NCBI GenBank assembly: GCA_965612795.1 | Contig: CBFDTI010000016.1 | Span: 1 to 21,660, forward strand | DNA from: an uncultured bacterium | GTDB lineage: Bacteria; Hydrothermota; UBA3073; NMUJ01 | Direction of reading: 5' to 3' | Length of the DNA: 21,660 nt | Shown here: positions 2,381 to 21,059 of the stretch, one piece after another | How the letters are laid out: each line of letters opens with the position of its first letter | How positions within the stretch are numbered: the stretch's first letter is position 1 | The notes under the pieces: generated by a model | Seen by the model: the letters and a program-made list of their open reading frames with translations, nothing else | Database searches by the model: none | Told to the model about the DNA's origin: nothing | Made by a program: the position numbers and the translations under genes

Positions 2381-2407
2381 AAATTAACACAAATTACAAA
2401 TAAGCAA
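2381..2407 (-). promoter_or_regulatory. thiC promoter TTGCTT-N15-TAATTT (TGn extended -10), probably leaderless
   Basis: Minus strand: TTGCTT (2407-2402), 15 nt, TAATTT (2386-2381), 6 nt, ATG at 2374. No SD. Confidence 0.55.
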
Positions 2408-2448
2408 CCACTTTAAGTGATAATTTATAAATACGTCACCGTATATGG

Positions 2449-2475
2449 TTGACCATAAGATTTAACGAGTACCAT
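2449..2475 (+). promoter_or_regulatory. Antiporter promoter TTGACC-N15-TACCAT
   Basis: TTGACC 2449-2454 and TACCAT 2470-2475; same geometry as other promoters in the window. Confidence 0.55.
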
Positions 2476-2534
2476 ATTAACCGTGTTAAGTGCAGAAATG
2501 AAGTTATGCCTAACTTATTGTAGTGGCTCTTGAG

Positions 2535-3716
2535 ATGAATGAGATATTAGCTATTGGGTTGATACTGTTTTTCGGATATTTTGTTGGGCGCCTCATTTCG
2601 AGGTTGAGGATGCCCACCGTCACAGGCTATATACTGTTGGGGTTGGCGTTTGGTGTGTCGTTGCTTAAGATTATACCCAAGGATTTGAACCTAAGGCTTA
2701 CGTGGTTGATAGAGTTTGCACTCCTGTTGGTTGCGTTTAATGTAGGTACGGAGTTGCGGATTGATACATTTAAACGGTTAGGTAAACCGCTCATCTTAAT
2801 CATTGTACTGGAAACCGTAGGTGCATTCCTTTTCTTATTCATGGGTATGATGCTCATGCGTCAGGGTGTGGCATTATCGTTGTTAATAGCCGCTATCGGA
2901 TGTGCGACTGCACCCGCTGTTACTGTGCTGGTGCTTAATGAGTATAGAGCAGCGGGTCCGCTTACACAGGTGTTACTCGCATGTGTGGGTATGGATGATG
3001 CGATCGGACTTACCTTTTACTCGATATGTTCATCCATTGCTCATGGTATGTTCGATAAAACACAGATATCGGTAGTAATCCTGATCGGCAAGATAGTGCT
3101 TGGTGTGTCGATATCCATCATGATAGGGATAGCCTTCGGTATTCTACTGGACCTCATAACCCGTAGGGTGGCGTATCCACTTGATATACTTGTTATCGCG
3201 GTGGGTACGATCATGCTTGTGGGTGGGTTGCTTCAACTCAGACCCCACGGGGTGCGATTCTCGCCATTGATCGCAAGTATGGCGATAGGCTTCTATGTTG
3301 CAAACTTTGCACCCCGTCACCGTGCTATAAGGGGGGCGCTTGAGCATTTCAGTATGCCATTTTATGTGATCTATTTCGTATTGGCGGGCGCGAGACTCGA
3401 CTTTAGGTTACTTATGGCGTTAGGCTTGGTGGCTGCCGTTTACCTTATATGTCGGTTTGGTGGCAAGCTATTCGGTGCGTGGTTGGGTGGTACTATTTCA
3501 CGTGCACCACGTGCTATAAGGAAGTATACGGGGTTTGGGCTGTTTTCACAAGCCGGTATAGCGATAGGGTTATGTTTATATGCAGCGAAGGAATTTCCGC
3601 AGGTGGGTGACGTTATCGTAGCTATAGCGCTGGGGACTACGGTGGTTACCGAACTCATAGGGCCGTTGATGACGAAATTTGCAATATTACGTGCAGGTGA
3701 GGCATACAGGAGGTGA
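2535..3716 (+). CDS. Cation:proton antiporter (Na+/K+:H+ exchanger, CPA2/Kef-like membrane domain)
   Basis: Highly hydrophobic multi-TM protein with PTVTGYILLG, AFNVGTEL, CATAPAVT, VGMDDAIG, FVLAGARL, SQAGIAIGL, ELIGP. Start probably ATG 2535 (MNEILAIG); GTG 2523 is the alternative. Confidence 0.85.
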   Translation: MNEILAIGLILFFGYFVGRLISRLRMPTVTGYILLGLAFGVSLLKIIPKDLNLRLTWLIEFALLLVAFNVGTELRIDTFKRLGKPLILIIVLETVGAFLFLFMGMMLMRQGVALSLLIAAIGCATAPAVTVLVLNEYRAAGPLTQVLLACVGMDDAIGLTFYSICSSIAHGMFDKTQISVVILIGKIVLGVSISIMIGIAFGILLDLITRRVAYPLDILVIAVGTIMLVGGLLQLRPHGVRFSPLIASMAIGFYVANFAPRHRAIRGALEHFSMPFYVIYFVLAGARLDFRLLMALGLVAAVYLICRFGGKLFGAWLGGTISRAPRAIRKYTGFGLFSQAGIAIGLCLYAAKEFPQVGDVIVAIALGTTVVTELIGPLMTKFAILRAGEAYRR

Positions 3717-3724
3717 TGCATTTA

Positions 3725-3753
3725 TTGACATCATGTGATGTACGTGATATTTT
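3725..3753 (+). promoter_or_regulatory. Promoter TTGACA-N17-TATTTT with an overlapping 14-bp dyad
   Basis: TTGACA 3725-3730, TATTTT 3748-3753, dyad ACATCA-TG-TGATGT 3728-3741, SD AGGAGG 3767-3772 ahead of ATG 3777. Confidence 0.6.
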
Positions 3754-3776
3754 AACATAAGAAAATAGGAGGTATA

Positions 3777-4310
3777 ATGTTATTGAGTGAGTTATTGACC
3801 CCGGATTTGGTGATACTCGATTTGAAGGCACGTACCAAACACGATATCATTGCGGAGATGGTGGACTTGTTCGTCCAATCCGGTATCGTAACCGATAGGG
3901 AGAAGTTTATTGAGATGATCGAGAAACGTGAACAGATAGAATCCACCGCTATAGGGGGCGGTATTGCCATACCTCACGCGAGGTCGGAAGTCGTCAAACA
4001 GCTACGGGTGGGGTTTGCACGTTCAAAAGAAGGGGTTGATTTTGATGCACTCGACCGCAAGCCGGTATACTTGATATTTATGATAGCGGCACCTATCGAT
4101 GTACGTAAGGAGTACTTACAGGCGGTAGCTAAGGTGGCACGTCTACTTAAGTCGAGCGTTATGCGTAAGGCGTTGATGGATGCGGAGACAAAAGAGGACG
4201 TTATGAGGGTGATAATGGATTTTGACGGTGTCGTACCCGAACGTGTTGAGGTTAAAACAAAAGAGGGTAGAGTCATATACAAACAGGGTGAGCAACCTAA
4301 AGGAGGGTGA
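3777..4310 (+). CDS. PTS EIIA protein (Ntr/fructose-mannitol EIIA_2 family), stand-alone, with a C-terminal extension
   Basis: REQIESTAIGGGIAIPHAR (phospho-His motif), GVDFDALDRKPVYLIFMI; strong SD. Confidence 0.9.
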   Translation: MLLSELLTPDLVILDLKARTKHDIIAEMVDLFVQSGIVTDREKFIEMIEKREQIESTAIGGGIAIPHARSEVVKQLRVGFARSKEGVDFDALDRKPVYLIFMIAAPIDVRKEYLQAVAKVARLLKSSVMRKALMDAETKEDVMRVIMDFDGVVPERVEVKTKEGRVIYKQGEQPKGG

Positions 4311-4654
4311 TGTATCTGTTGATCATCATCCTACATAAGGAAGAGTATCTTGATGATGTGCTCGAAACCCTCGTGGAGCTGGGTGTGGATGAAGCGATAA
4401 CTGTGGAAGTGGAGTCACTTGGTAAGGCGCTCGCTTATAAGGTGCCAATATTTGCGGGGTTGAGGTTAGGTATCGAGAGTAAACCGTACTCACGTACTAT
4501 ATTTGCGGTGACGGATGATCAATACACTGGACGTAAACTTATAGAGATGTTGCGTAAGGTGGATATCGATCTTGAAGCTAAGGGGGTAGCACGTATACTT
4601 ACGGTGAAGCTGGAATCCGTATATGGTACACCGGAGGAGATAACCGAAATTTAG
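4310..4654 (+). CDS. PII-like (GlnB-superfamily) small protein
   Basis: 114 aa; MYLLIIILHKEEYLDDVLETLVELGV, T-loop-like region with VPIFAGLR, C-terminal GVARILTVKLESVYG. TGATG overlap with EIIA favours ATG 4310 over GTG 4307. Confidence 0.65.
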   Translation: MYLLIIILHKEEYLDDVLETLVELGVDEAITVEVESLGKALAYKVPIFAGLRLGIESKPYSRTIFAVTDDQYTGRKLIEMLRKVDIDLEAKGVARILTVKLESVYGTPEEITEI

Positions 4655-4661
4655 CCATTCG

Positions 4662-4688
4662 TTGACGTGGTAACTCCTGAGGTAAAAT
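4662..4688 (+). promoter_or_regulatory. polA promoter TTGACG-N15-TAAAAT, probably leaderless
   Basis: TTGACG 4662-4667, TAAAAT 4683-4688, 6 nt, ATG 4695. No SD. Confidence 0.65.
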
Positions 4689-4694
4689 TTAATA

Positions 4695-7181
4695 ATGGGT
4701 AAAGTGTTATATTTGGTAGATGGTAGTCTACTTGCTTATCGTGCATTCTATGCGTTTATACGTAACCCATTACGTACGTCAAAAGGTGAAAATACAAGTG
4801 CAGTGTTTGGGTTCACCAATTCGCTGTTGAAGATACTTAATGACTATAATCCCGAGTATATAGCCGTGTTCTTTGATAGTCCAACACCTACGTTTAGACA
4901 TAAACTATTTGAGGAGTATAAGGCTACACGACCGCCGGCACCAGATGAGTTGAAGCCTCAGATACCCAAAATAAAGGCGATTGTTAAATATCTCGGTATC
5001 CCCATGATAGAGGTACCTGGTATAGAAGCAGATGACGCGATTGGTATAGTAGCAGAGAAGGCAGCAGCCGCTAATTGGGATGTTGTGATCGTGGGTAGTG
5101 ATAAAGATTTTCTGCAGCTGTTGTCACCGAAGATAAAGTTGCTCGACCCAAGGGAGTTCAAGCTCTACGGTAAGGAGAAAGTTGAGGAGAAGTGGGGTAT
5201 ACCTGCTGAGTATGGGGCAGATTTTCTTGCACTTGTAGGTGACGATATCGACAATATACCGGGTGTACCTGGTATAGGGCCGAAGACGGCGGCACAACTT
5301 ATACGTAAGTGGGGTAGTATCGAGAATATCTATGAAAATCTACCAAAAGTAACCCCGGAAAAGGTGCGTAAACTGTTGGAGCAACACCGTGATCGTGCAA
5401 TGTTATCGAAGAAACTGGCAACGCTGAGGTTAGAGCAACCGCTGGAGGTTAGGTTTGAGGAGTTACGGCGAGGTGAGCTACAACGTGAACCGCTACTTAA
5501 GATGTTTCGTGAGCTGGAATTTACATCACTTATGAAGAAAATAGGGGGGTTCAAGTTGCGTCCATATCCTGTAAGGGATACACATGACGACTATGTGAAG
5601 GGGGTGACCAAGCTGGCGATTGTGTGGGATGACGACTTCTATAGTATAAGTAAGGCTGAGGGTGATGCCATTGTTGTGACGGACAAACAGAAGCTGGCTG
5701 GTTTGGTGAGCGATCCCAACATATCGAAGATAGTACCGGATGTCAAATATCTACACAAGAATTACGAGGTAGCTGGCCCTGTGTTCGATACCAGTATCGC
5801 ATCGTATTTGTTGGAACCTGATCTTAAAGATCACTCTGTTGAGTATCTATCAGCTGCGTACTTGGCGATACCGATTGAGGTGCCCAAACAGCCATCGTTC
5901 AGCGAACGTACGGCGTTGTTGGGGTTGAAAGCTGAGGTACTTTACAGGGTTGAACGGATACTGTTGGAGGAACTGCGTGAGAAGCAGCTGGATAAACTCT
6001 ATTATGAGATCGATCTACCGTTGGCACGTGTGCTTGCACATATGGAGAAGGTTGGCGTACTTATTGATGTGGGTTACTTAGAGGCTGAATCGCAGCGGTT
6101 AGCACATGAATTACATGAACTTGAACGTCAAATCTATGCGATAGCGGGTGAGGTGTTCAATATACGGTCGCCGAAACAGCTATCATATATATTGTTTGAG
6201 AAGTTGAAGTTACCCAAAGGTAAACGCCGTAAGACGGGACCATCGACAGATGTGGAGGTGTTGGAGAAGCTGGCTGAGGAACATGAGATTGCGCGGTTGT
6301 TGTTACAGTATCGTGAGAAATATAAACTTAAATCCTCGTACATAGATGTGTTACCTCAGATACGTGATGCTTATGGACGTATACATGCGGAGTGGAACCA
6401 AACCGTAACTGCAACGGGTAGGTTGAGCTCATCAAACCCTAACCTCCAGAATATACCGAAACGCGAAATCCGTAAGGCGTTTATCGCACCCAAAGGTAGG
6501 GTACTTGTGGCGGCTGACTATTCACAAATAGAGTTGAGGATAATGGCATCGCTATCGGAGGATCCTAACCTTATGGATGCATTCTTCAAGGGTGAGGATA
6601 TTCACACAAAGACAGCTAAGTTATTGTTTGGTGAAGAGAACCCTGAGACACGACGACGTGCAAAGGTGGTAAACTTCGGTATAATGTATGGTATGGGCCC
6701 GTATGGGTTATCGCAGGAACTCAAATGCCCGATACAGGAGGCACATGCGTTTATTGCTAATTACTTTGCTACGTATCCGAAGGTTAAGGAATGGATCGAT
6801 CGTACGCTGGAGTTTGCACGTGAACATGGGTATGTGACGACGATACTGGGTAGACGGCGTTACTTCAAGAATTTGAACCACCCCAACGCCAACCTGCGCA
6901 GGTTCGAGGAGCGTGCTGCTATAAATGCACCGATACAGGGGAGTGCAGCAGATATGATCAAGAAGGCGATGCTTGATATATACACGACGTTTGAGAAGGA
7001 GAAGATACCTGCGGATATGATAATACAGGTGCATGATGAGCTGGTGTTGGAAGTAGACGAAAGTGTCAAGGATGAGGTGCGTGAGATCGTTCGCAAGAAG
7101 ATGGAGACCGCTATACCGTTGAAGGTGCCGGTGAAGGTTGAGATAGGTGAGGGACACACCTGGTATGAGGCTCACACCTAA
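4695..7181 (+). CDS. polA: DNA polymerase I
   Basis: 5'-3' exonuclease (LVDG, YKATR, EADD, DKD, GDDIDNIPGVPGIGPKTA); polymerase motifs TGRLSSSNPNLQNIP, DYSQIELR, RRRAKVVNFGIMYG, QVHDEL. Confidence 0.98.
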   Translation: MGKVLYLVDGSLLAYRAFYAFIRNPLRTSKGENTSAVFGFTNSLLKILNDYNPEYIAVFFDSPTPTFRHKLFEEYKATRPPAPDELKPQIPKIKAIVKYLGIPMIEVPGIEADDAIGIVAEKAAAANWDVVIVGSDKDFLQLLSPKIKLLDPREFKLYGKEKVEEKWGIPAEYGADFLALVGDDIDNIPGVPGIGPKTAAQLIRKWGSIENIYENLPKVTPEKVRKLLEQHRDRAMLSKKLATLRLEQPLEVRFEELRRGELQREPLLKMFRELEFTSLMKKIGGFKLRPYPVRDTHDDYVKGVTKLAIVWDDDFYSISKAEGDAIVVTDKQKLAGLVSDPNISKIVPDVKYLHKNYEVAGPVFDTSIASYLLEPDLKDHSVEYLSAAYLAIPIEVPKQPSFSERTALLGLKAEVLYRVERILLEELREKQLDKLYYEIDLPLARVLAHMEKVGVLIDVGYLEAESQRLAHELHELERQIYAIAGEVFNIRSPKQLSYILFEKLKLPKGKRRKTGPSTDVEVLEKLAEEHEIARLLLQYREKYKLKSSYIDVLPQIRDAYGRIHAEWNQTVTATGRLSSSNPNLQNIPKREIRKAFIAPKGRVLVAADYSQIELRIMASLSEDPNLMDAFFKGEDIHTKTAKLLFGEENPETRRRAKVVNFGIMYGMGPYGLSQELKCPIQEAHAFIANYFATYPKVKEWIDRTLEFAREHGYVTTILGRRRYFKNLNHPNANLRRFEERAAINAPIQGSAADMIKKAMLDIYTTFEKEKIPADMIIQVHDELVLEVDESVKDEVREIVRKKMETAIPLKVPVKVEIGEGHTWYEAHT

Positions 7182-7761
7182 CATCAAAATAGGGGTTACA
7201 GGTAAATTAGGTGCGGGTAAGTCCACAGTTGCTAGGATATTGGCGGGGTTGGGTGCTAATATCATAGATGCGGATAAGATAGGGTGGCAAATTTTACAAG
7301 AGAAGAGGGACGAAATAGTGAACCTCTTGGGTACGGAAGTGTTGGAAGGTGAACGTATCAATCGCAAAAAGGTAGCGGAGATAGTGTTTAGCTCAAAGGA
7401 TAAGCTGGAACAGTTTGAAGCCATTGTGCATCCACCATTGTTGGAACAGCTCAAGAAGCGGCTACAGAGGCCGGGTGTGGTTGTGGTGGATGCTGCACTT
7501 ATACCTTATTGGGGGATTGAGGATTGGTTTGACTACGTGATATGGGTGGATGCAGCGTGGGAGGTTAGGTTGGATAGGATGAAAAAGCGAGGTTATAATG
7601 AAGCTGACATCGTGCAACGTGAACGTATGCAAAACTTTAGCCCACAGAGGGTTGATTTTTATGTGAAGAACGACGGTGATATGGAAGCGCTGGTTAAACA
7701 GGTACGTAGGATATGGGAAAAGATATTGCGAGAAGCGTCAGATATTGCGGAGTTGTTCTGA
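7165..7761 (+). CDS. coaE: Dephospho-CoA kinase
   Basis: IGVTGKLGAGKST P-loop, IIDAD, INRKKVAEIVF, IVHP; classic polA-coaE linkage. ATG 7165 is the likely start (ORF track gives 7147). Confidence 0.92.
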   Translation: MRLTPNIKIGVTGKLGAGKSTVARILAGLGANIIDADKIGWQILQEKRDEIVNLLGTEVLEGERINRKKVAEIVFSSKDKLEQFEAIVHPPLLEQLKKRLQRPGVVVVDAALIPYWGIEDWFDYVIWVDAAWEVRLDRMKKRGYNEADIVQRERMQNFSPQRVDFYVKNDGDMEALVKQVRRIWEKILREASDIAELF

Positions 7762-8810
7762 TACTGTTGGGGTTGGTGGGATGTGCACCTATAGGTAGGA
7801 AGAAACTAATCCCTACGTATGTACCGGCAACCTGGATACGGGTGTTGATAGATGAGAGTGACAATGGGATTATAAAATTTAGGGGTGGTGCTACCATAAC
7901 TGTAGGGGGTAGGAGTATAAAAGTAGGGAGGGAATTGCAACTTAAGGATGGATACCTTCAAGCTGATGGGTTAACCCTGGACACAAGGGATGGTGTGGTG
8001 ATAACACCTGAACATGGGTATTTCATATGGAAAGGACATCGATATAGGGGTAAACTTATATTGAAAGCTGGTAAGGTGATAAACTACCTGCCACTGGAGG
8101 AGTACCTCTATAGTGTGGTAGCAGCTGAGATGGGGTATAGGCGTGAGTTTGAAGCCCTAAAGGCGCAGGCGGTGGCTGCACGTACGTATGCGGTGCGTAA
8201 GATGGGGGAGAGGCGTAACCGGGATTATGATATACATGCAGCACCAGAGGTAGACCAGAAATACGTGGGTATGGACAACGAATATGAAGGGGCACGTGAT
8301 GCAGTCAATGCTACACGGGGTGAAATACTGGTATACGGGGGTGAACCCATACGTGCATTGTATTCGGCATGTTGTGGCGGATATACGAACGACCCGCCAG
8401 AGGGATGGGATACACCTTATCTTGTGGGTAAGCCCGACCCTTACTGTAAAGGGTCACCGTATGAGAAGTGGAAGGTTACACTGAGTAGGGGTGAGCTTGA
8501 AGCTAAGCTGGGTTGTAGAGTACAGTCTATAGAGGTGGTGGAACGTGACAGGACGGGCCGTGTACGTTTTATAGAGATAAATGGTAAGCGGATGGCGGGT
8601 GGTGAGTTTAGGGCAAAGTTAGAGCTACCCAGTACGTGGTTCGAAGCCAAAAAGCGCGGCGATAGTATAATAATCGAGGGTAGAGGGTATGGTCACGGGT
8701 ATGGTATGTGCCAGTGGGGTGCTATAGGGATGGCGAAACGTGGATACTCGTATCGACAGATACTGGCGTTTTACTACCCAGGGACGAGGGTTGTGAGGTA
8801 TACGAGGTGA
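7713..8810 (+). CDS. SpoIID/LytB-domain lytic transglycosylase, probable lipoprotein
   Basis: INYLPLEEYLYSVVAAEM, EALKAQAVAARTYA, GYGHGYGMCQWGA, ILAFYYPG; signal peptide ending in lipobox LVGC. Confidence 0.9.
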   Translation: MGKDIARSVRYCGVVLILLGLVGCAPIGRKKLIPTYVPATWIRVLIDESDNGIIKFRGGATITVGGRSIKVGRELQLKDGYLQADGLTLDTRDGVVITPEHGYFIWKGHRYRGKLILKAGKVINYLPLEEYLYSVVAAEMGYRREFEALKAQAVAARTYAVRKMGERRNRDYDIHAAPEVDQKYVGMDNEYEGARDAVNATRGEILVYGGEPIRALYSACCGGYTNDPPEGWDTPYLVGKPDPYCKGSPYEKWKVTLSRGELEAKLGCRVQSIEVVERDRTGRVRFIEINGKRMAGGEFRAKLELPSTWFEAKKRGDSIIIEGRGYGHGYGMCQWGAIGMAKRGYSYRQILAFYYPGTRVVRYTR

Positions 8811-8835
8811 CAAATATGGGTTCAACGCAAGTAGC

Positions 8836-8862
8836 TTGATATGAGCGATCTTTGTGTAAATT
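8836..8862 (+). promoter_or_regulatory. MNT-HEPN promoter TTGATA-N15-TAAATT, probably leaderless
   Basis: TTGATA 8836-8841, TAAATT 8857-8862, 6 nt, ATG 8869. Confidence 0.6.
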
Positions 8863-8868
8863 ATATTG

Positions 8869-9210
8869 ATGGACAAAAAATTAAGTGAAATTATAAAAAG
8901 AGTGGTAGATGAAGTCGACCCAGAGAAGATTATACTTTTTGGATCGAGAGCTGTGGGGGGATCGCAGAAATACAGTGATTACGATATATGTGTATTAAAG
9001 AAGGAAATTAAAGATAAAAGAGAAACCATCAGAAGGATCTATCGTAAACTCCTTGGTGTAGGCGTAGCGGTGGATGTGATAGTTGAAACTACTGACCGGT
9101 TTGAAGAATTAAAAGATAAGTGGTTCCTTATTTATAGTGAGATTGCTAAGCGAGGTAAAGTTGTATATGAGAAACGAAAAGTTCGTAGCGGAATGGTTAC
9201 GGAGGGCTAA
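8869..9210 (+). CDS. Minimal nucleotidyltransferase (MNT) antitoxin
   Basis: IILFGSRAVG...SDYDICV (GSx10DxD) and VDVIV; overlaps a downstream HEPN gene. Confidence 0.9.
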   Translation: MDKKLSEIIKRVVDEVDPEKIILFGSRAVGGSQKYSDYDICVLKKEIKDKRETIRRIYRKLLGVGVAVDVIVETTDRFEELKDKWFLIYSEIAKRGKVVYEKRKVRSGMVTEG

Positions 9211-9552
9211 GAGTAACTTAGAAAGGGCAAAAGCAGGCAGGATTTGTGAGGATATCCTATATGAAGATTTATGTTTTGATTGCCAGCAAGCTGTGGAAAA
9301 GCCCTAAAGGCGTTACTTATTAGCATAAATAGGGAATTTCCGCCCACACATTCGATTGCGAGACTTTTGGAATTGATTGAAGATACGGGTATTAATATAC
9401 CCGACGAAGTTAAAAATGCTGTGGAATTGACCGATTATGCGGTGAAAGCAAGATACCCTGGTGAGATGGAACCCGTTACTGAAGAAGAATACAAAAGAGC
9501 GATTAAGATTGCTGAAACAGTGTTTGAATGGGTAAAGGGGTTACTGAGATAG
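9167..9552 (+). pseudogene. HEPN toxin gene split by a 1-nt frameshift near 9297-9301
   Basis: ATG 9167 gives MRNEKFVAEWLRRAKSNL...LCFDCQQAVEKP* (TAA 9305-9307). The -1 frame continues ALKALLI...REFPPTHSIARL...YAVKARYPG to TAG 9552. Joined, they restore the family motif QQAVEKALKA. Confidence 0.85.
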
Positions 9553-9572
9553 TGAAAAAGATGAGCGCATGC

Positions 9573-10040
9573 TTACCCTAATAATGGGGCGACCAACTCA
9601 CATACTTTAATGAGGAAATCCTTATCTTCATCTGTGAATGCTGATGGTTGGTGTGAATCGATGTCGAGCTCAGCTACGAAATTGTTATCAAGGAATATCG
9701 GGATGACGGCTTCGGAGCGAACGTTTATGTCGCAGGCAAGGTAGTTATCTTCTTTGGAGACATCGGAGATGATGAGCGGTTGTTTTGTGTGGGCGACACG
9801 ACCGCAGATACCTTTGCCAAACGGTATACGGGTGTGGATGGTGGGTTTACCGGCGAACGGTCCAAGTACAAGCTCGTCATTGTGAGGGTTAACGAGATAG
9901 AAGCCAACCCAATCGTAACCCGGTACATTATCACGTAGTAGGTTGCAGATGGCACGTAGCTTGGAATCTGTGGTACTATCACCATGTATGATGTGCGTTA
10001 TTTGTGCCACTAAGGTGTTGAACAGCTGTCGTTTATCCAT
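9573..10040 (-). CDS. msrC: GAF-domain protein, free methionine-R-sulfoxide reductase (MsrC/YebR-like)
   Basis: DWVGFYL, LVLGPFAG, IPFGKGICG, NYLAC, RSEAVIPI, ELDIDS. Confidence 0.8.
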   Translation of the reverse strand: MDKRQLFNTLVAQITHIIHGDSTTDSKLRAICNLLRDNVPGYDWVGFYLVNPHNDELVLGPFAGKPTIHTRIPFGKGICGRVAHTKQPLIISDVSKEDNYLACDINVRSEAVIPIFLDNNFVAELDIDSHQPSAFTDEDKDFLIKVCELVAPLLG

Positions 10041-10046
10041 ATGTTA

Positions 10047-10074
10047 AAGATATTAAAGGTGTCCATAAACTCAA
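10047..10074 (-). promoter_or_regulatory. GAF gene promoter TTGAGT-N16-TATCTT, probably leaderless
   Basis: Minus strand: TTGAGT 10074-10069, TATCTT 10052-10047, 6 nt, ATG 10040. Confidence 0.5.
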
Positions 10075-10101
10075 TATAAGTTGACGGTATCGCAAGCTAC
10101 G

Positions 10102-10132
10102 TTGACATGTAAGAGGGTAGTTTATCTAATTT
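10102..10132 (+). promoter_or_regulatory. ABC operon promoter: TTGACA with TATCTA at N15 or TAATTT at N19
   Basis: TTGACA 10102-10107; TATCTA 10123-10128; TAATTT 10127-10132 lies 6 nt before ATG 10139. A second TTGACG sits at 10081. Confidence 0.5.
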
Positions 10133-10138
10133 TAACAC

Positions 10139-11398
10139 ATGCAGGCTGGTGGTAGGTGGTTATTCATGATACTGATAGTGGCAGCAGGTGGATTCTTTTA
10201 CGTATGGTACGTAAATCATGAAGATGATAATGCGATCGTCATCCGATATATGACATGGGATAGTGCGCGTGGGCTCGAACCTGAACGTAAGATTATTGAG
10301 AGGTTTGAGCAACAGCATCCTAACATCAAGATAAGTTTGGAACCCTGCCCACAGGGGTATGAAGATAGGGTGATAGTATCGTTGGCGGGTGGTAAGCCAC
10401 CGGATGTGTTCCTGTGGTGGAACTATCCGAGGTTGGTGGAGTTGGGTGCGTTGGAGGATCTCAGGCCTTACCTTGATAGTGATACCACGATATCGTTGGA
10501 GGATTTTTATCCCAATCTGGTGCCAATCGTCCTCTATAAGGGGAAGGTGTGTGGGTTGCTTAAGGATTTTACGCCTGCAATACTATACTATAACAAGGAT
10601 CTGTTTGATGCTGCAGGTATACCGTATCCGGATTCGGATTGGACCTGGGACGAGTTTCGTGATATAGCCATACAGTTGACGCATGGTGATACGTATGGGT
10701 TTCTGGTTGATGCACGTGATATATACACGTTGGAGATGTGGGTATGGAGTAATGGAGGTGACCTCATGTCACCTGATGGCGATACCGCTACAGGGTATCT
10801 CGATAGCAAGGAGACAATAGAGGCGATCAGGTTCTATACCGAGTTGTACACAAAATATAGGGTGTCGCCGGGGTTGGCCGAACGTGCATCGATGGGTGGA
10901 GGTGTGAACATGTTTATCACGGGTAAGTTGGCGATGTTCGTAAGTGGTAGGTGGCCACTGTTGCAACTCAAACGCATAAAGGGGTTGAGGTTTGGTACGG
11001 TGTTGCCACCGCACCCCAAGGGTAAACAGCTTGTGGAGATCATATACCAATCGGCACAGGTGATGGCAAAGGAGTCACGTCATAAGAAAGAAGCGTGGGA
11101 GTTCCTCAAGGCGATGGCGGATACTGCTGCACATAGGATACGTGGTGAGATGGGTTGGGCCATACCAGCATATCCGGAAGTAGTTAAGAGGTTGGGGTTT
11201 GACAAGGATCCTATCGAACGGCCCTTCATACAGGCGGTAAAGTATGCGACGAAGAAACCGATAGCCCTTAGGACGGTGAGGTGGCCTGAAATTGAACGTA
11301 AGATTGCGTATGGGATGGAACGCATAATGTTGTTGGATGAGGATGTGGAGAAGGTGCTCAAAGAGGTAGCGTATAAGATAGATCATGGGTTAGAATGA
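10139..11398 (+). CDS. Carbohydrate ABC transporter substrate-binding protein (SBP_bac_1/8 type)
   Basis: FEQQHPNIKI, GKPPDVF, LYYNKDLFDAAGIPYPDSDWTWDEF, FITGKLAMFVSGRW, EAWEFLK; N-terminal hydrophobic anchor. Confidence 0.92.
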   Translation: MQAGGRWLFMILIVAAGGFFYVWYVNHEDDNAIVIRYMTWDSARGLEPERKIIERFEQQHPNIKISLEPCPQGYEDRVIVSLAGGKPPDVFLWWNYPRLVELGALEDLRPYLDSDTTISLEDFYPNLVPIVLYKGKVCGLLKDFTPAILYYNKDLFDAAGIPYPDSDWTWDEFRDIAIQLTHGDTYGFLVDARDIYTLEMWVWSNGGDLMSPDGDTATGYLDSKETIEAIRFYTELYTKYRVSPGLAERASMGGGVNMFITGKLAMFVSGRWPLLQLKRIKGLRFGTVLPPHPKGKQLVEIIYQSAQVMAKESRHKKEAWEFLKAMADTAAHRIRGEMGWAIPAYPEVVKRLGFDKDPIERPFIQAVKYATKKPIALRTVRWPEIERKIAYGMERIMLLDEDVEKVLKEVAYKIDHGLE

Positions 11399-13153: not shown

Positions 13154-13180
13154 TTGACATTTTGGGGTTTGAAGTATACT
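13154..13180 (+). promoter_or_regulatory. Promoter TTGACA-N15-TATACT
   Basis: Perfect -35 (13154-13159) and near-perfect -10 (13175-13180) separated by 15 nt. Confidence 0.65.
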
Positions 13181-13300
13181 GATATATAAGAAGGGGGATA
13201 AATTTGGATAATAAATAAAAAAGTCAGTTTATTCTATAAACCGACAGTTCAGCAAGACTTACAAACAGGAGTAGTGTGAACAAGTAAAAAGGAGGTAATA

Positions 13301-13588
13301 ATGTATGCAGTTGTGATACGTGCACAGGGGCAACCTGGCAAGATAGATACAGCAGCAAGTATCTGGAGAGATTCCGTGATACCTGTACTGAAGCAACGTA
13401 AGGGGTTTAAAGGTGGATTTTTTATGACAGACCCTGACACGGGTAAAGGTATATCGATCACTTTTTGGGAGACGGAAGCTGATGCTAAGGAAGGTGAGGC
13501 CAGTGGGTTGTATAAGGAGCGAATTGCTAAGTTTACGAGCGTACTTACTGAACCGCCTACACGTGAGGTTTACGAGGTACAGATATAA
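13301..13588 (+). CDS. ABM-like (dimeric alpha/beta barrel) small protein
   Basis: 95 aa; PGKID...KQRKGFKG...ISITFWETEADA...EVYEV pattern; SD AAGGAGGT. Confidence 0.75.
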   Translation: MYAVVIRAQGQPGKIDTAASIWRDSVIPVLKQRKGFKGGFFMTDPDTGKGISITFWETEADAKEGEASGLYKERIAKFTSVLTEPPTREVYEVQI

Positions 13589-13878
13589 GTTGTGGTTGAC
13601 GGGTGACATCTGAAGTGAAAATGGTGTGGGAAGCACCATCAGGTATGGATGAATATCGGTATATAAACAGGTTACGGACGAGGTGAACTAGTACAGGGTG
13701 TTAGAATAATAATCTATGTTTTAGCTCCCAATTAACATAGTAATTCAATGACCAGGCCCAGCCATTTACGTTTGTGACACGATACAGGAGGGGTGCAAAA
13801 TTTAGGATAACCGCTTGGTGAGCGATATTTTAGCTTGTTGTTTATACGTACGTTGTAATCCCACATTAGGGGACGAAA

Positions 13879-13906: not shown

Positions 13907-13933
13907 AATGTGAGGTATACAATTGGGGATGGG

Positions 13934-14869: not shown

Positions 14870-14884
14870 GAGTCACCACAGGAC

Positions 14885-14914
14885 TTGAGTTTTGCTCAAT
14901 CTTTGCTGTATACT
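14885..14914 (+). promoter_or_regulatory. Nuclease gene promoter TTGAGT-N18-TATACT with dyad TTGAG-N5-CTCAA
   Basis: TTGAGT 14885-14890, TATACT 14909-14914, inverted repeat 14885-14899, SD AAGGAGGT before ATG 14947. Confidence 0.4.
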
Positions 14915-14946
14915 TATTTCTGAAAATATCAAAAAGGAGGTAAATA

Positions 14947-16086
14947 ATGGGTATTACTTTAACACAAATTTTAAATTTAGTCGGGAAGTTAGATGATACT
15001 CTAGGGGACGATACTCCAAGAGAGCGTTTTAGGAGATTTCTCAGGGATAATGTCAAAGAAGTAGGACAGATTCGAGATTATATCGAAGAATGCCTAAGGA
15101 ATTCCGGAGATCAGTATAATCGTGCCCTTCAAGATTTAGTGAATCATTTGGCAACTTTCTTAGGATTCAAAGTAGTTTTCGGTAGATACCAAGGAGTCCC
15201 GAGCCAGATTGGATTCGATGGGCTTTGGGAATCACCGTTGGACTTCTTTATTGTTGCTGAGGTTAAAACTACTGAAGTATATGCTATTAAGACGTCCATT
15301 CTCATTGGATATGTGGATGCTTTGATTTCTGAAAGGAAAATCCCTAATTGGGAATATGCGCTGGGGCTTTATGTCGTGGGACGCCCTGATCCTGAACTCC
15401 ACCAGTTAGAAAACTCCATAATAGCTGAACGAAGGATTCACCAACTTCGTATAGTATCAGTAGAATCCTTACTCTCGCTTGCTGAGTTAATGAACGAATA
15501 TGACATTAACCACGCAGATGTCCTCTCGATTTTAAAGCCCTCTGGTCCAACAATAGACCCCGTTGTGGACTTGATGACACGCCTTGTTGCCCAACAGCTG
15601 GCGGAGAAGAAACCGATAGAACAACCTGTGGTGACTGAGGTTTCTCCTGTGGGAGCACAATATTGGCTAACTCCGGTGAAAGGCGATGAGGAGCGGACTG
15701 CAGAAGAGGAGATCAAGATACTTGTTGGTGAGGAGAAGATCTATGCGTTCGGGGAACGTACGCCAGGAAGAAGATATATTAAACCGGATGATTGGATTTG
15801 TTTTTATGCAGCTGGAAATGGCGTAGTAGCTCATGCAAAAGTGGCTTCCACTCCTGAACGCAAACGTCATCCTAAGATTCGACATCCCGATAAGTATCCG
15901 TGGGTATTTCACCTTAAGGACGTTCGGCTCTATCTAGATAATCCTGTGATTATTAATGCAGAACTGCGAGGCAAACTTGATGCTTTCCAAGGGAAGAATC
16001 CAGATCAAGGTTGGGCATGGTTCGTCCAAGCGACTCGTAGAATTACAAGACGAGATTTCGAGCTTTTAACGAGAAGTGAGCAATAA
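14947..16086 (+). CDS. PD-(D/E)xK (Mrr-like) nuclease fused to an EVE/PUA-like domain; candidate modification-dependent restriction endonuclease
   Basis: N-terminal LQDLVNHL...LGF...GFDGLW...IVAEVKT catalytic pattern; C-terminal QYWLTPV...IKPDDWICFYAAGNGVVAHAKVAS...YPWVFHL typical of EVE. Confidence 0.7.
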   Translation: MGITLTQILNLVGKLDDTLGDDTPRERFRRFLRDNVKEVGQIRDYIEECLRNSGDQYNRALQDLVNHLATFLGFKVVFGRYQGVPSQIGFDGLWESPLDFFIVAEVKTTEVYAIKTSILIGYVDALISERKIPNWEYALGLYVVGRPDPELHQLENSIIAERRIHQLRIVSVESLLSLAELMNEYDINHADVLSILKPSGPTIDPVVDLMTRLVAQQLAEKKPIEQPVVTEVSPVGAQYWLTPVKGDEERTAEEEIKILVGEEKIYAFGERTPGRRYIKPDDWICFYAAGNGVVAHAKVASTPERKRHPKIRHPDKYPWVFHLKDVRLYLDNPVIINAELRGKLDAFQGKNPDQGWAWFVQATRRITRRDFELLTRSEQ

Positions 16087-16189
16087 AGATTTATCTTACT
16101 GAAAAAAACATAAAAGACGCATCAGATGATAGGCTCAAAAACTTATTTCTTATATTGGAAAACGTTAACCGGGAGATGAGGGCTAAGAT

Positions 16190-16445: not shown

Positions 16446-16447
16446 TG

Positions 16448-16474
16448 TTGACAACCGTCATGTTGATATATTTT
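16448..16474 (+). promoter_or_regulatory. Promoter TTGACA-N15-TATTTT upstream of carA
   Basis: TTGACA 16448-16453, TATTTT 16469-16474. Confidence 0.5.
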
Positions 16475-16711
16475 TCAAAAGAAGTTTAGCTCTCTCAGTA
16501 ACCATTAGGTGGAATCGCATATCAATGTGTTATACAACAAAACGAGTCAAAATCAAAGAAAGGTCAAACCCCATCACGCAACATCCAACTCACTTGCTTA
16601 AAAGTTGTGTTTTTCCGTTATCCAATCGCTGTAATGGGATCGAAGTCATAACAGATATGAGGTTGGACTTTCCGCATAAAGTGCGGTATACAGGTAAGAA
16701 GCTTTTGGTGT

Positions 16712-17785
16712 ATGGGGTCGTACGAACGGATAGCTAAACTTATCCTCGAAGATGGCTCTACCTTCCAGGGGTATTCATTTGGTGCTAAAAGAGTTGTAAC
16801 TGGTGAGGTTGTCTTCAACACGGGTATGGTCGGCTATCCCGAGAGCTTAACCGATCCATCCTATAGGGGGCAGATTCTGGTTCTAACGTATCCTCTGATA
16901 GGCAACTACGGCGTCCCAGATGACGAGAAAGAAGATGACATATCGGAACATTTCGAGTCAGATAAGATACAGGTGCAGGGATTGATAGTGGCGGATTACT
17001 CCGAAACATATTCACATTGGAATGCGAAAAAGTCGTTATCGGAATGGCTGAGTGAACATAATGTTCCCGGCATATATGGCATAGATACGAGAGAGTTGAC
17101 CAAAAAGCTACGGGAGAGAGGGACGATGCTTGGCAAGATCGTCTACGATAACGAGGATATAGAGTTTGAGGATCCTAACAAACGAAACCTCGTAGCCGAG
17201 GTCAGCATAAAAGAGCCAATCGTCTACAAGAAGGGTAAGAAGAAAATAATACTCATCGATTGTGGTGCCAAAAATAGCATAATCAGAGCATTCCTGAGGC
17301 GGAATATAACCGTTATCCGATGTCCATGGGATTATGATTTCCTGACAGAAAAGGTAGACGGTATCGTGATATCAAACGGCCCAGGTGACCCCAAAATGTG
17401 TGAACCCACAATAGATAATGTCAGAAGAGCGCTGGAGAGAAATGTACCGATCCTTGGTATATGTCTTGGGTCACAAATCCTGGCACTTGCTGCTGGTGCT
17501 AACACCTACAAGCTGAAATATGGTCACAGAAGCCATAACCAACCCTGCATAGAGGTGGGCACCAAGAGATGTTACATCACCCCACAGAACCACGGTTATG
17601 CGGTTGATTCAGACACGTTACCGGAGGATTGGCGTGAATGGTTCTACAACAACAACGACAAGACAAACGAAGGCATTATACACATATCGAAACCATTTTT
17701 CGGGGTACAGTTTCACCCTGAGGCATCACCAGGGCCGGATGATACCGGATTTCTGTTTGATATGTTCATAAGGGCGATACAGTGA
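16712..17785 (+). CDS. carA: Carbamoyl-phosphate synthase small subunit
   Basis: GEVVFNTGMVGYPESLTDPSY, SNGPGDP, GICLG (catalytic Cys), QNHGYAV, QFHPE. Confidence 0.97.
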   Translation: MGSYERIAKLILEDGSTFQGYSFGAKRVVTGEVVFNTGMVGYPESLTDPSYRGQILVLTYPLIGNYGVPDDEKEDDISEHFESDKIQVQGLIVADYSETYSHWNAKKSLSEWLSEHNVPGIYGIDTRELTKKLRERGTMLGKIVYDNEDIEFEDPNKRNLVAEVSIKEPIVYKKGKKKIILIDCGAKNSIIRAFLRRNITVIRCPWDYDFLTEKVDGIVISNGPGDPKMCEPTIDNVRRALERNVPILGICLGSQILALAAGANTYKLKYGHRSHNQPCIEVGTKRCYITPQNHGYAVDSDTLPEDWREWFYNNNDKTNEGIIHISKPFFGVQFHPEASPGPDDTGFLFDMFIRAIQ

Positions 17786-20700
17786 AGGGCAAACTCAAAA
17801 AGGTTTTAATCATAGGTTCAGGTGCGATAAGGATAGGTCAGGCGGGCGAGTTCGACTATTCCGGTAGCCAAGCCATTAAGGCATTAAAGGAGGAGGGTAT
17901 CGAAACCGTGCTGGTGAATTCAAATATTGCCACAGTGCAGACATCTGATTATCTGGCTGATAAAGTGTACTTCTTGCCTATCGATACCTATTTTGTTGAA
18001 AAGGTTATCGAAAAGGAAAGACCCGATGGTATATTGCTCGGGTTCGGTGGACAAACCGCATTAAATGTAGGGGTTGAATTAGCCAAACGGGGTGTTTTTA
18101 AAAAGTATAAAGTAGAGGTGCTGGGTAGCCCTATCGAAGCCATCGAGAACACGGAGGATAGGAGCTTATTTGTCAAGAAAATAGGGGAGATTGGGCTCAA
18201 GCTACCAACCAGCAGCATCGTAACCAATGTGGGGGAGGCTTTAAATGTAGCTGAAAAGATCGGCTACCCCGTGATGTGTAGGATAGGGTATGCATTGGGT
18301 GGGTTAGGGTCAGGTGTCGCCTACAATGAAAAGGAGTTGCTCGAACTAACAAGGAAAGCGTTCTCGTTCACGGATCGTATATCGATTGAGGAATATCTCG
18401 ATGGATGGAAAGAGTTCGAATATGAAGTTATGAGAGACCGTTACAATAACTGTATTGCTGTCTGTTCCATGGAGAATGTCGATCCCATGGGCATCCATAC
18501 CGGTGAAAGTATCGTTGTCGCACCCGCACAGACGTTGAGCGCCTCTGAGTATTTTATGTTACGCTCCTTAGCCATAAAGGTGATACGACATCTCGGTATA
18601 GTCGGTGAATGCAACATACAGTTTGCGGTCGACCCCAGATCGGGGGATTACAGGGTGATAGAGGTGAACGCCAGGTTAAGCAGGAGCTCCGCATTGGCTT
18701 CCAAAGCTACCGGCTATCCGTTAGCTTTTATTGCAACCAAGTTAGCTATAGGTTATAGTCTAACCGAGGTGGAAAACATCATAACCAAGAGGACATCGGC
18801 ATGCTTCGAACCCGCCCTCGACTATGTTGTACTCAAGTATCCGCGATGGGATCTACAAAAATTCCGTAGGGTGAGCTCCAACATAGGGTCTGAGATGAAA
18901 TCTGTGGGCGAGGTGATGGCTATCGCACGCAGTTTCGAGGAAGCTCTCCAAAAGGCAATCCGTATGTTAGACATAGGGATGCCGGGGTTAGCCTATAGTA
19001 AGCTTGAGTTCAACGATCTGGAGAAAGAGATCAAAGAGCCAACCGATAAGCGGATGTTTGCAATCGCTGAAGCAATAAGACGAGGGTATTCCATCGAGAA
19101 GCTACACGAGCTGTCGAAGATCGATCCATGGTTCCTACATAAAATAAAGAACATAATCGAGCTCGAGCATAAACTCAGCCGCTATAAGCTTGAAGATTTA
19201 CCACCACAACTGTTGAGGGAAGCCAAACAAAAGGGTTATTCCGACGCACAGATAGCGATGTTGACTGGTAGCACCGAGCTGGATGTAAGAAAAAGAAGGA
19301 AAGCGCTGGGAATTGTCCCCAGTGTGAAACAGATAGATACATTGGCGGGGGAGTATCCCGCCGAGACCAACTACCTGTACCTAACTTACAATGGTTGTGG
19401 GGATGACATCGATTTCAATGATAAAAATCAGGTCATCGTCTTAGGTAGCGGCCCATACAGGATCGGTTCATCGGTGGAGTTCGACTGGTGTTGCGTCAAC
19501 TCCGTGGTTACATTGAGGAAAATGAACTACAAAGCGATAATGATAAACTGTAACCCCGAAACAGTAAGCACAGATTATGATATCTGTGACAAACTGTACT
19601 TTGAGGAGCTCACCTTTGAAAGAGTGCTCGATATCTACGAAAAAGAGCACCCAATAGGGGTCATAGTTTCGATGGGTGGCCAGATACCCAACAATTTAGC
19701 ATTACCCCTGTACAATGCCGGTGTCCGTGTACTGGGGACATCGCCGGTTGATATCGACAGGGCTGAGGATAGGCACAAGTTCTCGCAACTGCTGGATGAA
19801 TTGGGTATCGATCAACCAGAATGGAAAGAACTCACCAGCATAAGTGAAGCAGCACAGTTTGCGGATAAGGTTGGCTATCCTGTCCTGATACGGCCGAGCT
19901 ACGTGCTTAGTGGTGCCGCAATGAGCATAGCTTTGAGTGAGGACGAACTAAAAGAATACCTTAAGAAGGCGTCTGAGGTTAGCAAGGAGCATCCCGTGGT
20001 GATCAGTAAATTCATAACACGAGCTAAGGAGATAGAAATAGATGCTGTTGCAAGGAATGGCGAGCTCTATTGTTACGCTATCTCTGAACATGTCGAAAAT
20101 GCAGGCGTACATTCGGGGGATGCAACGATGGTGTTACCACCTCAACGCACTTATTTAGAGACCATGCGAAGGATCAAGATAATCACCAGAAAGATAGCCA
20201 AAGCGCTAAACATAAGCGGACCATTTAACATACAGTTTATAGCCAAAGATAATGATGTTAAGGTTATCGAGTGCAATTTGAGGGCTTCGAGAAGCTTCCC
20301 GTTCGTCTCTAAAGTGTTGAAGCTAAACTTCATCGAACTAGCCACCCGTATCATCATGGGTAAGAGTGTGCCAAAGATAGATCGCTCTTCGTTTGACCTG
20401 GATTATGTTGGGGTAAAAGCGCCACAGTTCTCCTTCAGGAGGTTAAAAGGGTCCGACCCTATCTTAGGTGTGGAGATGACCTCCACTGGTGAGGTGGCCT
20501 GTTTGGGTGACGATTTCAACGAAGCATTCCTGAAAAGCCTGCTATCGGTGGGTTTCAAGTTACCCAAGAAAGCCATCCTGTTATCTACCGGCCCGATAGA
20601 TAGTAAAGCGGAGCTACTTGAGAGTACGAGGATATTGAAGAAGATGGGGTTTAAGCTCTATGCTACTCGGGGGACAGCCGATTTCCTGAAAGCCAACGGT

Positions 20701-20970
20701 ATCGAAGCAGTACCCCTCTACTGGCCGCTGGAGAATAAAGAGCCCAACACCGTCAGTTATATAGCGGATGGTAAGATCGATTTGGTGATAAACATACCCA
20801 AGAATATCGAGAAAGAGGAACTCGACAACGATTATCTAATAAGACGGGCAGCGGTCGATTTCGGTGTACCTCTGATCACTAACGTACAGCTGGCGAAGCG
20901 GTTTATTGAGGCGATTTCTAAGGTATCGCTGCATGACTTAAAAGTCAAGAGCTGGGATGAATACAGTTAG
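17782..20970 (+). CDS. carB: Carbamoyl-phosphate synthase large subunit
   Basis: IGQAGEFDYSGSQA, GIHTGES, EVNARLSRSSALASKATGYP, IGSSVEFDWC, NPETVSTDYD, RPSYVLSG, C-terminal MGS domain; GTGA overlap with carA. Confidence 0.98.
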   Translation: MKGKLKKVLIIGSGAIRIGQAGEFDYSGSQAIKALKEEGIETVLVNSNIATVQTSDYLADKVYFLPIDTYFVEKVIEKERPDGILLGFGGQTALNVGVELAKRGVFKKYKVEVLGSPIEAIENTEDRSLFVKKIGEIGLKLPTSSIVTNVGEALNVAEKIGYPVMCRIGYALGGLGSGVAYNEKELLELTRKAFSFTDRISIEEYLDGWKEFEYEVMRDRYNNCIAVCSMENVDPMGIHTGESIVVAPAQTLSASEYFMLRSLAIKVIRHLGIVGECNIQFAVDPRSGDYRVIEVNARLSRSSALASKATGYPLAFIATKLAIGYSLTEVENIITKRTSACFEPALDYVVLKYPRWDLQKFRRVSSNIGSEMKSVGEVMAIARSFEEALQKAIRMLDIGMPGLAYSKLEFNDLEKEIKEPTDKRMFAIAEAIRRGYSIEKLHELSKIDPWFLHKIKNIIELEHKLSRYKLEDLPPQLLREAKQKGYSDAQIAMLTGSTELDVRKRRKALGIVPSVKQIDTLAGEYPAETNYLYLTYNGCGDDIDFNDKNQVIVLGSGPYRIGSSVEFDWCCVNSVVTLRKMNYKAIMINCNPETVSTDYDICDKLYFEELTFERVLDIYEKEHPIGVIVSMGGQIPNNLALPLYNAGVRVLGTSPVDIDRAEDRHKFSQLLDELGIDQPEWKELTSISEAAQFADKVGYPVLIRPSYVLSGAAMSIALSEDELKEYLKKASEVSKEHPVVISKFITRAKEIEIDAVARNGELYCYAISEHVENAGVHSGDATMVLPPQRTYLETMRRIKIITRKIAKALNISGPFNIQFIAKDNDVKVIECNLRASRSFPFVSKVLKLNFIELATRIIMGKSVPKIDRSSFDLDYVGVKAPQFSFRRLKGSDPILGVEMTSTGEVACLGDDFNEAFLKSLLSVGFKLPKKAILLSTGPIDSKAELLESTRILKKMGFKLYATRGTADFLKANGIEAVPLYWPLENKEPNTVSYIADGKIDLVINIPKNIEKEELDNDYLIRRAAVDFGVPLITNVQLAKRFIEAISKVSLHDLKVKSWDEYS

Positions 20971-21032
20971 TTACCTGCTATTACCGCCCGGTGAGTGCGT
21001 CAACCAGATATACTTGTTACACAGGTTTTAGA

Positions 21033-21059
21033 TTGACACATGGTGATTTTGTGTATTTA
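21033..21059 (+). promoter_or_regulatory. hpt promoter TTGACA-N15-TATTTA, probably leaderless
   Basis: TTGACA 21033-21038, TATTTA 21054-21059, 6 nt, ATG 21066. No SD. Confidence 0.6.

Follow-up and report, generated by a model that had tools for sequence, protein, structure and literature searches.

A 15-bp promoter spacer in a probably thermophilic WOR-3 order and its coincidence with loss of RpoD

The spacer between the -35 and -10 boxes of bacterial promoters is presented as essentially invariant in two cross-phylum surveys. According to the available text of one, no species examined departs from 17 bp as its commonest or median spacer (PMC8407463); in that of the other, the median is 17 in all 49 genomes and 99.2% fall within 16-18 (bioRxiv 10.64898/2026.09.23.753901). 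Bacteroidota sigma-AB promoters are given, in the accessible part of their description, as -33 TTTG and -7 TAnnTTTG, with variable spacing in Bacteroides; 3.7% of 5' untranslated regions in B. thetaiotaomicron are under 10 nt (PMC7366714). For Chlorobaculum tepidum, the available portion of the report gives an RpoD motif of -33 TTG and TA[ATC][ATC][AT]T, likened there to TTG-N17-23-TANNTTTG, with the box 4 bp before +1 (bioRxiv 10.1101/172254). Leaderless units with a -10 box beside the open reading frame (ORF) are described in Deinococcus-Thermus and Actinobacteria, according to the accessible text of a further source (PMC12340547). Here, promoter geometry is described for a 21,660-nt stretch of DNA (the window), which is contig 16 (CBFDTI010000016.1) of an uncultured WOR-3 bacterium (GCA_965612795.1), and for the whole source genome (G000; 1.42 Mb, 128 contigs, 99.5% complete by marker genes) and its relatives. 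An initial annotation of the window had proposed a recurring 15-bp spacer. This geometry is real, is found genome-wide and is confined to one probably thermophilic WOR-3 order; it coincides with loss of RpoD in the genus.

The promoters of G000 resemble canonical sigma-70 promoters in having a -35 hexamer near TTGACA and a -10 box with a T-A start and a final T; transcription would start about 7 nt further on. The region 2.4 and region 4.2 motifs of the sigma factor are also alike. They differ in a modal spacer of 15 bp, followed by 16, where the canonical mode is 17 +/- 1 bp, and in the presence of a 275-aa sigma factor without region 1.1 and the absence of RpoD. Spacers in G000 were counted on both strands, from a -35 word to a following TANNNT. 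TTGACA (863 sites) gives 99 matches at N15, 46 at N16 and 26 at N17 against a background of 24.4, the mean of spacers 19-28. TTGAC[CGT] (1650 sites) gives 106, 67 and 51 against a background of about 44, and four control hexamers are flat across spacers. Spacers of 15 bp account for about 72% of the counts above background, those of 16 bp for 23% and those of 17 bp for 5%. This histogram had been set beforehand as the test of the proposed spacer, with a 17-bp mode as the outcome that would speak against it; the mode found is 15 bp. In an alignment, the N15 sites give gTTGACa-N15-TAttTT with A-rich sequence behind it. Of these sites, 48% have A as the sixth base of the -35 box, and the seventh position past the -10 hexamer is a purine in 72% of sites. 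A TTGACA-N10 peak (54 sites) was considered as a separate class and rejected; most of it is cast by N15 and N16 promoters, in which the T that closes the N10 match is also the T that opens the true -10 box.

Several anchors fix the register independently of the pairing of the two hexamers. Among the 216 TANNNT-N6-ATG sites that begin an ORF of 100 codons or more, 43 have TTG at spacer 15, 19 have it at spacer 16 and 5 at spacer 17, where about 5 is background. A long-ORF start is found exactly 6 nt past the -10 box at 25 of the 205 TTGACN-N15-TANNNT sites, and 23 of the 25 are ATG. An ORF start within 120 nt is found at 157 N15 sites, and in 62 of these it lies no more than 10 nt away. The genes in question are predicted to give leaderless mRNAs, with no room for a Shine-Dalgarno sequence. 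In an intergenic dyad count (68 kb), GAC-N16-TAT occurs 96 times against 32.9 expected; this dyad and TTG-N22-TTT, both of which represent the 15-bp register, are among the top intergenic dyads. Upstream of the 16S gene are TTGACC-N15-TACATT and TTGACT-N16-TATATT. The initial annotation had used the ATG as an independent anchor for the spacing, and genome-wide the start-codon, tRNA 5'-end and dyad anchors agree with it. The genes behind these sites include those for tRNA and rRNA, polA, thiC, hpt and carA, which makes the sites housekeeping promoters. The -10 box would be in its normal place relative to the predicted start, with the -35 box 2 bp closer.

Of the 46 tRNA genes in G000, about two dozen have TTGAC 34-38 nt (mostly 35-36 nt) before the mature 5' end. 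A regular expression assigns these promoters 12 N15, 6 N16, 1 N17 and 2 N18 spacers; it takes the shortest fit and is biased to short spacers. In many tRNA genes (e.g. contig 1, 25917-25989; contig 2, 38899-38971; contig 7, 28552-28628), no more than 7-8 nt separate the -10 box from the mature 5' end. With the box so near, the primary transcripts are predicted to have almost no 5' leader for RNase P. Near-leaderless tRNA transcripts are likewise predicted in G001 and G040, the two relatives used most in the comparisons below.

The distribution of the 15-bp class was determined by counting TTGACA-N15-TANNNT and TTGACA-N17-TANNNT in 61 WOR-3 genomes spread over the phylum. The order is represented by four genomes in the collection; G001 is the single order-mate outside the genus, and G040 is a class-mate with 17-bp promoters. 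N17 exceeds N15 in all 59 genomes outside the order (e.g. 285 vs 21, 365 vs 39 and 273 vs 28). The relation is reversed only in G000 (99 N15, 26 N17) and G001 (416 N15, 106 N17). Samples of 400 kb give 71 N15, 18 N16, 18 N17 and 6 N18 in G001, and 1, 23, 42 and 19 in G040; the N17 matches of G001 are mostly shadows of TATAATTT. The tRNA promoters of G001 are N15, and its ATGs peak 5 nt past the -10 box. G040 also has leaderless starts, at +6 to +9, and its tRNA genes are preceded by TTGAC at 37-39 nt. Measured from the -10 box, ATGs and tRNA ends are equally far away in G000 and G040; measured from TTGAC, tRNA ends are about 2 nt nearer in G000. The -35 flank is alike in G001 and G040, with c before TTGACA. 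Judged by these comparisons, the 15-bp shift is a derived trait of one small order and concerns the -35/-10 distance only. In G001 and G040 the dyad analysis is uninformative on promoters, since terminator-like GGG/CCC pairs and a repeat array swamped it. The intergenic dyads of G001 (contig 1, 1-400000) are dominated by a highly repeated unit, probably from a CRISPR-like array; TTC-N22-AAC, for example, is found 176 times.

The RpoD C-terminal model detects a long RpoD in every one of the 60 other WOR-3 genomes, in frames of 505-669 aa and at 248-388 bits. In G000 it finds only the 275-aa protein, which scores 184 bits with TIGR02393 against a cut-off of 354. Two genus-mates (87% and 66% complete) likewise have only the 275-aa type of sigma factor. 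Searching G000 by tblastn with three long RpoDs returns the small sigma gene only, and sigma region 1.1 is found nowhere in the genome. One other sigma-70 region 2 match is present in G000, an ECF-type protein at a contig end; a region 4 search gives one further weak match, to a 130-aa frame. In G001 and G040, dnaG is directly followed by rpoD. In G000 the sequence past dnaG (contig 89) is unbroken, and the stop codon of dnaG overlaps the start of an unrelated ORF of 215 aa; the absence of RpoD is therefore no assembly gap at the usual site. These checks argue that RpoD is truly missing from G000 and its two genus-mates, with the 275-aa protein as the only group 1-3 sigma left. The canonical reader, a group 1 sigma with region 1.1, is thus not found in G000.

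In the 275-aa sigma, Pfam finds regions 1.2, 2, 3 and 4 only. The protein is without region 1.1, the long non-conserved insert and the RpoD C-terminal tail, which is a group 2-like architecture. Its best NCBIfam scores are RpoS 206 bits, RpoD 197 and RpoH 167, all under cut-off. The DNA-reading motifs WWIRQ (region 2.4) and RERVRQ (region 4.2) are kept. The stretch between them is 149 residues long; its length is 151 residues in all but one of 21 long RpoDs, and 152 in the RpoD of G001. The shortening is located in the region 3.2 linker, which has 2-3 residues fewer. Region 3.0 reads VRIPSSKKSN, where long RpoDs have IRVPVHMIE. The functions of region 3.0 and 3.2 residues are presumed to be those assigned in E. 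coli.

The 275-aa sigma shares 49% identity with the small sigma of G001 and 35% with the RpoD of G001. Most sampled WOR-3 genomes have a small sigma in addition to RpoD, and with these the 275-aa sigma shares 38-46% identity. In a quick tree it falls outside the long-RpoD clade (SH-aLRT 100) and groups with small sigmas from its own class. The long RpoD of G001 has a long branch (0.83). It departs from otherwise invariant words, with QIMKAISEH for AITRAIADQ in region 2.4 and YRIPPHMSN for IRVPVHMIE in region 3.0, and its region 2.4 resembles that of small sigmas. The gene for the 275-aa sigma lies behind htrA in an operon that is conserved in the relatives checked, and an M23 peptidase gene is next (contig 15, 2010-4184). 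In G000 the operon is preceded by TTGACA-N15-TAATTT. The pairing with htrA suggests that this sigma began as an envelope- or heat-stress factor. A metagenome scan with the small sigma found one relative at 99% and two at 48% identity, on flanking DNA too short for spacer counts.

The sites found in the window are as follows, with coordinates, strand and description.
2381..2407, minus strand: thiC promoter, TTGCTT-N15-TAATTT; ATG at 2374, 6 nt past the -10 box, predicted leaderless.
2449..2475, plus strand: site upstream of a CPA2-like antiporter ORF (2523-3716), TTGACC-N15-TACCAT.
3725..3753, plus strand: site upstream of a PTS-IIA-like gene (3777), TTGACA-N17-TATTTT; AGGAGG leader; the sole clear 17-bp site in the window.
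4662..4688, plus strand: polA promoter, TTGACG-N15-TAAAAT; ATG at 4695, 6 nt past the -10 box, predicted leaderless.
8836..8862, plus strand: promoter of an MntA-like nucleotidyltransferase gene, TTGATA-N15-TAAATT; ATG at 8869, 6 nt past the -10 box.
10047..10074, minus strand: promoter of a 155-aa ORF (9573-10040), TTGAGT-N16-TATCTT; ATG at 10040, 6 nt past the -10 box; predicted leaderless, 16-bp class.
10102..10128, plus strand: promoter of an ABC substrate-binding protein gene, TTGACA-N15-TATCTA; ATG at 10139, 10 nt past the -10 box.
13154..13180, plus strand: site without an assigned downstream gene, TTGACA-N15-TATACT.
14885..14914, plus strand: site upstream of the ORF at 14947, TTGAGT-N18-TATACT; AGGAGG leader; 18-bp outlier.
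16448..16474, plus strand: site 237 nt upstream of carA (16712), TTGACA-N15-TATTTT.
21033..21059, plus strand: hpt promoter, TTGACA-N15-TATTTA; ATG at 21066, 6 nt past the -10 box, predicted leaderless.

All eight N15 sites of the initial annotation are present, with the coordinates and hexamers it gave. For thiC, polA, the MNT-like gene and hpt, the stated interval of exactly 27 nt between the -35 hexamer and the ATG is correct, and it leaves 6 nt between the -10 hexamer and the ATG. Much as that annotation had claimed, the window also has sites with 16 bp at 10047 (minus strand) and 16233, with 17 bp at 3725 and with 18 bp at 14885. The start codons of the four genes fit family alignments. 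The NCBIfam alignment of thiC begins at residue 1, in keeping with ATG 2374; for hpt, position 1 of the NCBIfam profile corresponds to residue 28 of a longer GTG frame, in keeping with ATG 21066. The caveat that the sites had been picked by eye is borne out for the loose pattern TTGNNN-N15-TANNNW, which is at chance in the window (28 matches vs 29.7 expected; 66 of 100 shuffles reach 28). It does not extend to the TTGAC-restricted and genome-wide counts, which exceed chance. In the window, TTGAC-restricted N15 gives 6 sites vs 1.87 expected, a number reached by none of 100 shuffles, and N17 gives 4 vs 2.13 (19 of 100 shuffles). The window data alone are suggestive of a 15-bp class; the decisive data are those of the whole genome.

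Two of these sites stand apart from an obvious gene start. The strong 13154 promoter is followed on the plus strand by an ORF (13301-13588, 95 aa) that overlaps one on the minus strand (13259-13639, 126 aa); an NCBIfam search with the minus-strand ORF gave no match. TTGACA-N15-TATACT at this position may serve a small RNA, or the strand may have been mis-called. The carA leader of about 237 nt (16475-16711) may be an unrecognised pyrimidine or arginine attenuator; an Rfam search at gathering threshold gave no match anywhere in the window. Four RNA runs from one marine-sediment study contain about 12-16% of the words of window positions 2300-10200. Metatranscriptome contigs are about 96% identical to parts of positions 4059-9478; they are assembled and carry no start, end or strand information. 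One contig crosses the 8836 promoter and another begins at 8876, which in assembled sequence is uninformative on start sites. By these matches, sequence of a close relative is present in the marine-sediment RNA libraries; transcription as such is not implied.

The closest likeness is to sigma-AB, a primary sigma of about 287 aa without region 1.1 from an FCB-group phylum; the 275-aa sigma is likewise compact and is 41-44% identical to it. The distance from TTG to TA is 18 nt in G000, 19 nt in Lishizhenia (Bacteroidota) and 20 nt in canonical promoters; the Lishizhenia value comes from a weak peak in a 400-kb sample (23 vs about 10). Unlike sigma-AB promoters, those of G000 have a full TTGACA -35 box and a sharp 18-nt distance. 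The promoters of G000 lack the word TAnnTTTG; at the next two positions past the hexamer G makes up 12% and 11%, and A or T is found instead. Counts anchored on TAnnTTTG give only 5-6 TTGAC at the relevant distances. In five other genomes TTG-N18-TAnnTTTG is near control, except for a modest excess in an Aureispira metagenome-assembled genome (294 vs 182). The 275-aa sigma also differs from the Bacteroidota sigmas in grouping with WOR-3 small sigmas in the quick tree, and orthology is unsupported. Leaderless genes are common in G000, unlike in B. thetaiotaomicron. The G000 lineage looks like a parallel case to sigma-AB rather than a member of that family.

Other systems share single features with G000. 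The T-rich TAnnnT of Chlorobaculum tepidum, an FCB-group organism, is comparable to TAttTT, but the accessible part of that report describes neither a sharp 15-bp class nor loss of RpoD. As in the leaderless units of Deinococcus-Thermus, the -10 box in G000 ends 6 nt before the ATG and the mRNA is predicted to begin at the start codon; unlike in those units, there is a strong -35 box, with the spacer fixed at 15 bp. Leaderless starts are not lineage-defining, since they are also found in the 17-bp relative G040. Sigma-28 and sigma-32 are small group 3 sigmas without region 1.1, which use shorter spacers on the same core enzyme. They recognise other hexamers and serve regulons; by inference, the sigma of G000 reads TTGACA/TAnnnT for tRNA, rRNA and biosynthetic genes.

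The explanation we consider probable is that the compact sigma replaced RpoD as the housekeeping factor and that its holoenzyme now prefers 15 bp. The sites would be the ordinary housekeeping promoters of a thermophilic WOR-3 genus, with canonical hexamers (TTGACA and TAnnnT, mostly TAttTT) and a spacer of 15, then 16 bp. Transcription would start about 7 nt past the -10 box, often at the A of the start codon or 0-2 nt before the mature tRNA 5' end. This would put the -10 box at -12 to -7, as normal, and the -35 box at about -33 to -28. We infer that the small sigma reads the 15-bp promoters in G000, because it is the only remaining group 1-3 sigma; for G000 this is a firm conclusion by elimination, and RNA polymerase carrying the small sigma would be the form that recognises them. 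An altered region 2-to-4 architecture would bring region 4 two bp closer to region 2, and substitutions in the beta flap tip may contribute. An altered sigma or RNA polymerase had already been suggested in the initial annotation. For the sigma there is strong circumstantial support in the loss of RpoD and in the compact sigma being the only group 1-3 sigma left; for the core enzyme, no indel was found. One core enzyme serves sigmas with different spacer optima, and the sigma is the usual determinant. For this reason the sigma is favoured over the core enzyme as the setter of the 15-bp distance. A fuller account is evenly balanced between true and false: a free-living lineage discarded RpoD, all housekeeping transcription passed to a compact stress-type paralogue co-transcribed with htrA, the optimum shifted from 17 to 15 bp, and G001 is a living intermediate.

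A number of observations weigh against replacement of RpoD by the compact sigma as the cause of the shift. In G001, which uses 15 bp, RpoD is intact (contig 7, 57373-59097; regions 1.1 to 4), so the shift can occur without RpoD being lost. The 149-residue distance is also found in the small sigmas of the 17-bp relatives G040 and G050, and neither has an N15 excess (25 vs 23 and 31 vs 23 in the control). In a survey of htrA-sigma operon promoters in ten relatives, the readable cases (G012 and G008) appear to be 17-bp and several are ambiguous; no htrA match was found in G053. Such promoters give no support for a native 15-bp preference of this sigma family. The sigma tree is a quick tree only, without a completed careful maximum-likelihood search, and its support for joining the small sigmas is modest (85). 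The transcription start positions are predicted from sequence. Lastly, the shift lies on a single branch of four genomes, and all traits of that branch are confounded with it.

The same G001 data fit a retuned core enzyme, in which region 4 was brought closer to region 2 for every sigma by beta-flap or beta' changes that arose in the order's ancestor, and RpoD then became redundant and was lost in this genus. G001 keeps RpoD but has only the 15-bp class, its tRNA genes included, and small sigmas with the 149-residue distance occur in 17-bp relatives too. The flap-tip helix differs in both 15-bp lineages, being ERLLRAVFGQKAADVKD in G000 and ERLLRAIFAEKSTDVKN in G001; aligned 17-bp class-mates have ERLLQAIFGEKARDVKD or ERLIRAIFGEKARDVKD in nine of ten cases and ERLIRAMFGKKARDVRD in the tenth, G015. 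Three substitutions in beta that are specific to the 15-bp group cluster just upstream of this helix. However, the flap indel in RpoB that the initial annotation had suggested is absent from an alignment of 13 beta sequences, which has substitutions only, and no internal indel specific to the 15-bp group is found in 14 beta' sequences either. The 12 group-specific substitutions in each of the two subunits are, by residue pairs, mostly conservative. Core retuning alone leaves the dispensability of RpoD unexplained, and it runs against the usual role of the sigma on a shared core. It is unlikely, though it deserves to be weighed. In G000, rpoB (contig 18, 3126-6617) and rpoC (contig 31, 7911-10994 and upstream) are on different contigs, and the two are adjacent in G040 and G001; the split could be a contig break or a real separation.

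The initial annotation had raised compensation by DNA topology, whereby the twist in a thermophile with reverse gyrase (or its temperature) makes 15 bp equivalent to 17 bp elsewhere. G000 has a full-length reverse gyrase (contig 59, 3527-6988; 1277 bits), which likely marks the lineage as thermophilic; the enzyme is found in 11 of the 61 sampled WOR-3 genomes, in six families. Within the class sample it is full-length only in G000, G069 and G001, all of the 15-bp lineage, and in none of 11 other class-mates. But the nine other WOR-3 genomes with a reverse gyrase over cut-off (G006, G010, G020, G038, G043, G051, G052, G056 and G058) all have N17 above N15 and a long RpoD. Thermotoga, which uses a 17-bp spacer, has a reverse gyrase match in the control set. 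By our arithmetic, two bp amount to about 72 degrees and 6.8 angstroms, far beyond what supercoiling could supply over 15-17 bp. This compensation is disfavoured and extremely unlikely. A register artefact, with the geometry unchanged and the conserved words offset from the true contacts (e.g. region 4 reading 2 bp upstream of TTGACA), draws support from promoter geometry being known here through sequence statistics only. It is at odds with the retention of RERVRQ and WWIRQ, with the -35 flank that matches between G001 and the 17-bp G040, and with the G000-G040 comparison, where only the distance from TTGAC changes; we regard it as very unlikely. Chance matches picked by eye in AT-rich intergenic DNA would account for the loose pattern in the window. 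They do not account for a genome-wide N15 count fourfold over background with flat control hexamers, for the TTGAC shuffles in the window, for three concordant independent anchors, or for the contrast with 59 relatives, and their probability is negligible.

The 15-bp geometry breaks, with canonical hexamers kept, a spacer that the available text of the two cross-phylum surveys treats as essentially invariant (PMC8407463; bioRxiv 10.64898/2026.09.23.753901). Word searches of the literature, which fall short of a full survey, found no paper that pairs a 15-bp spacer with TTGACA, none on WOR-3 promoters or sigma factors, and no description of rpoD replacement by a group 2 sigma. Promoter predictors fixed to 16-18 bp would miss most promoters of this lineage. 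A compact sigma that reads TTGACA/TAnnnT at 15 bp would be a possible orthogonal transcription part. The lineage offers a natural experiment, with relatives two bp apart, one genus without RpoD and a sister genome with both sigmas; it addresses what sets the region 2-to-4 distance and how a promoter set co-evolves with its reader. If replacement of RpoD by the compact sigma is the true explanation, this would be a natural, genome-wide re-tuning of the sigma region 2-to-4 distance, which the surveys treat as fixed.

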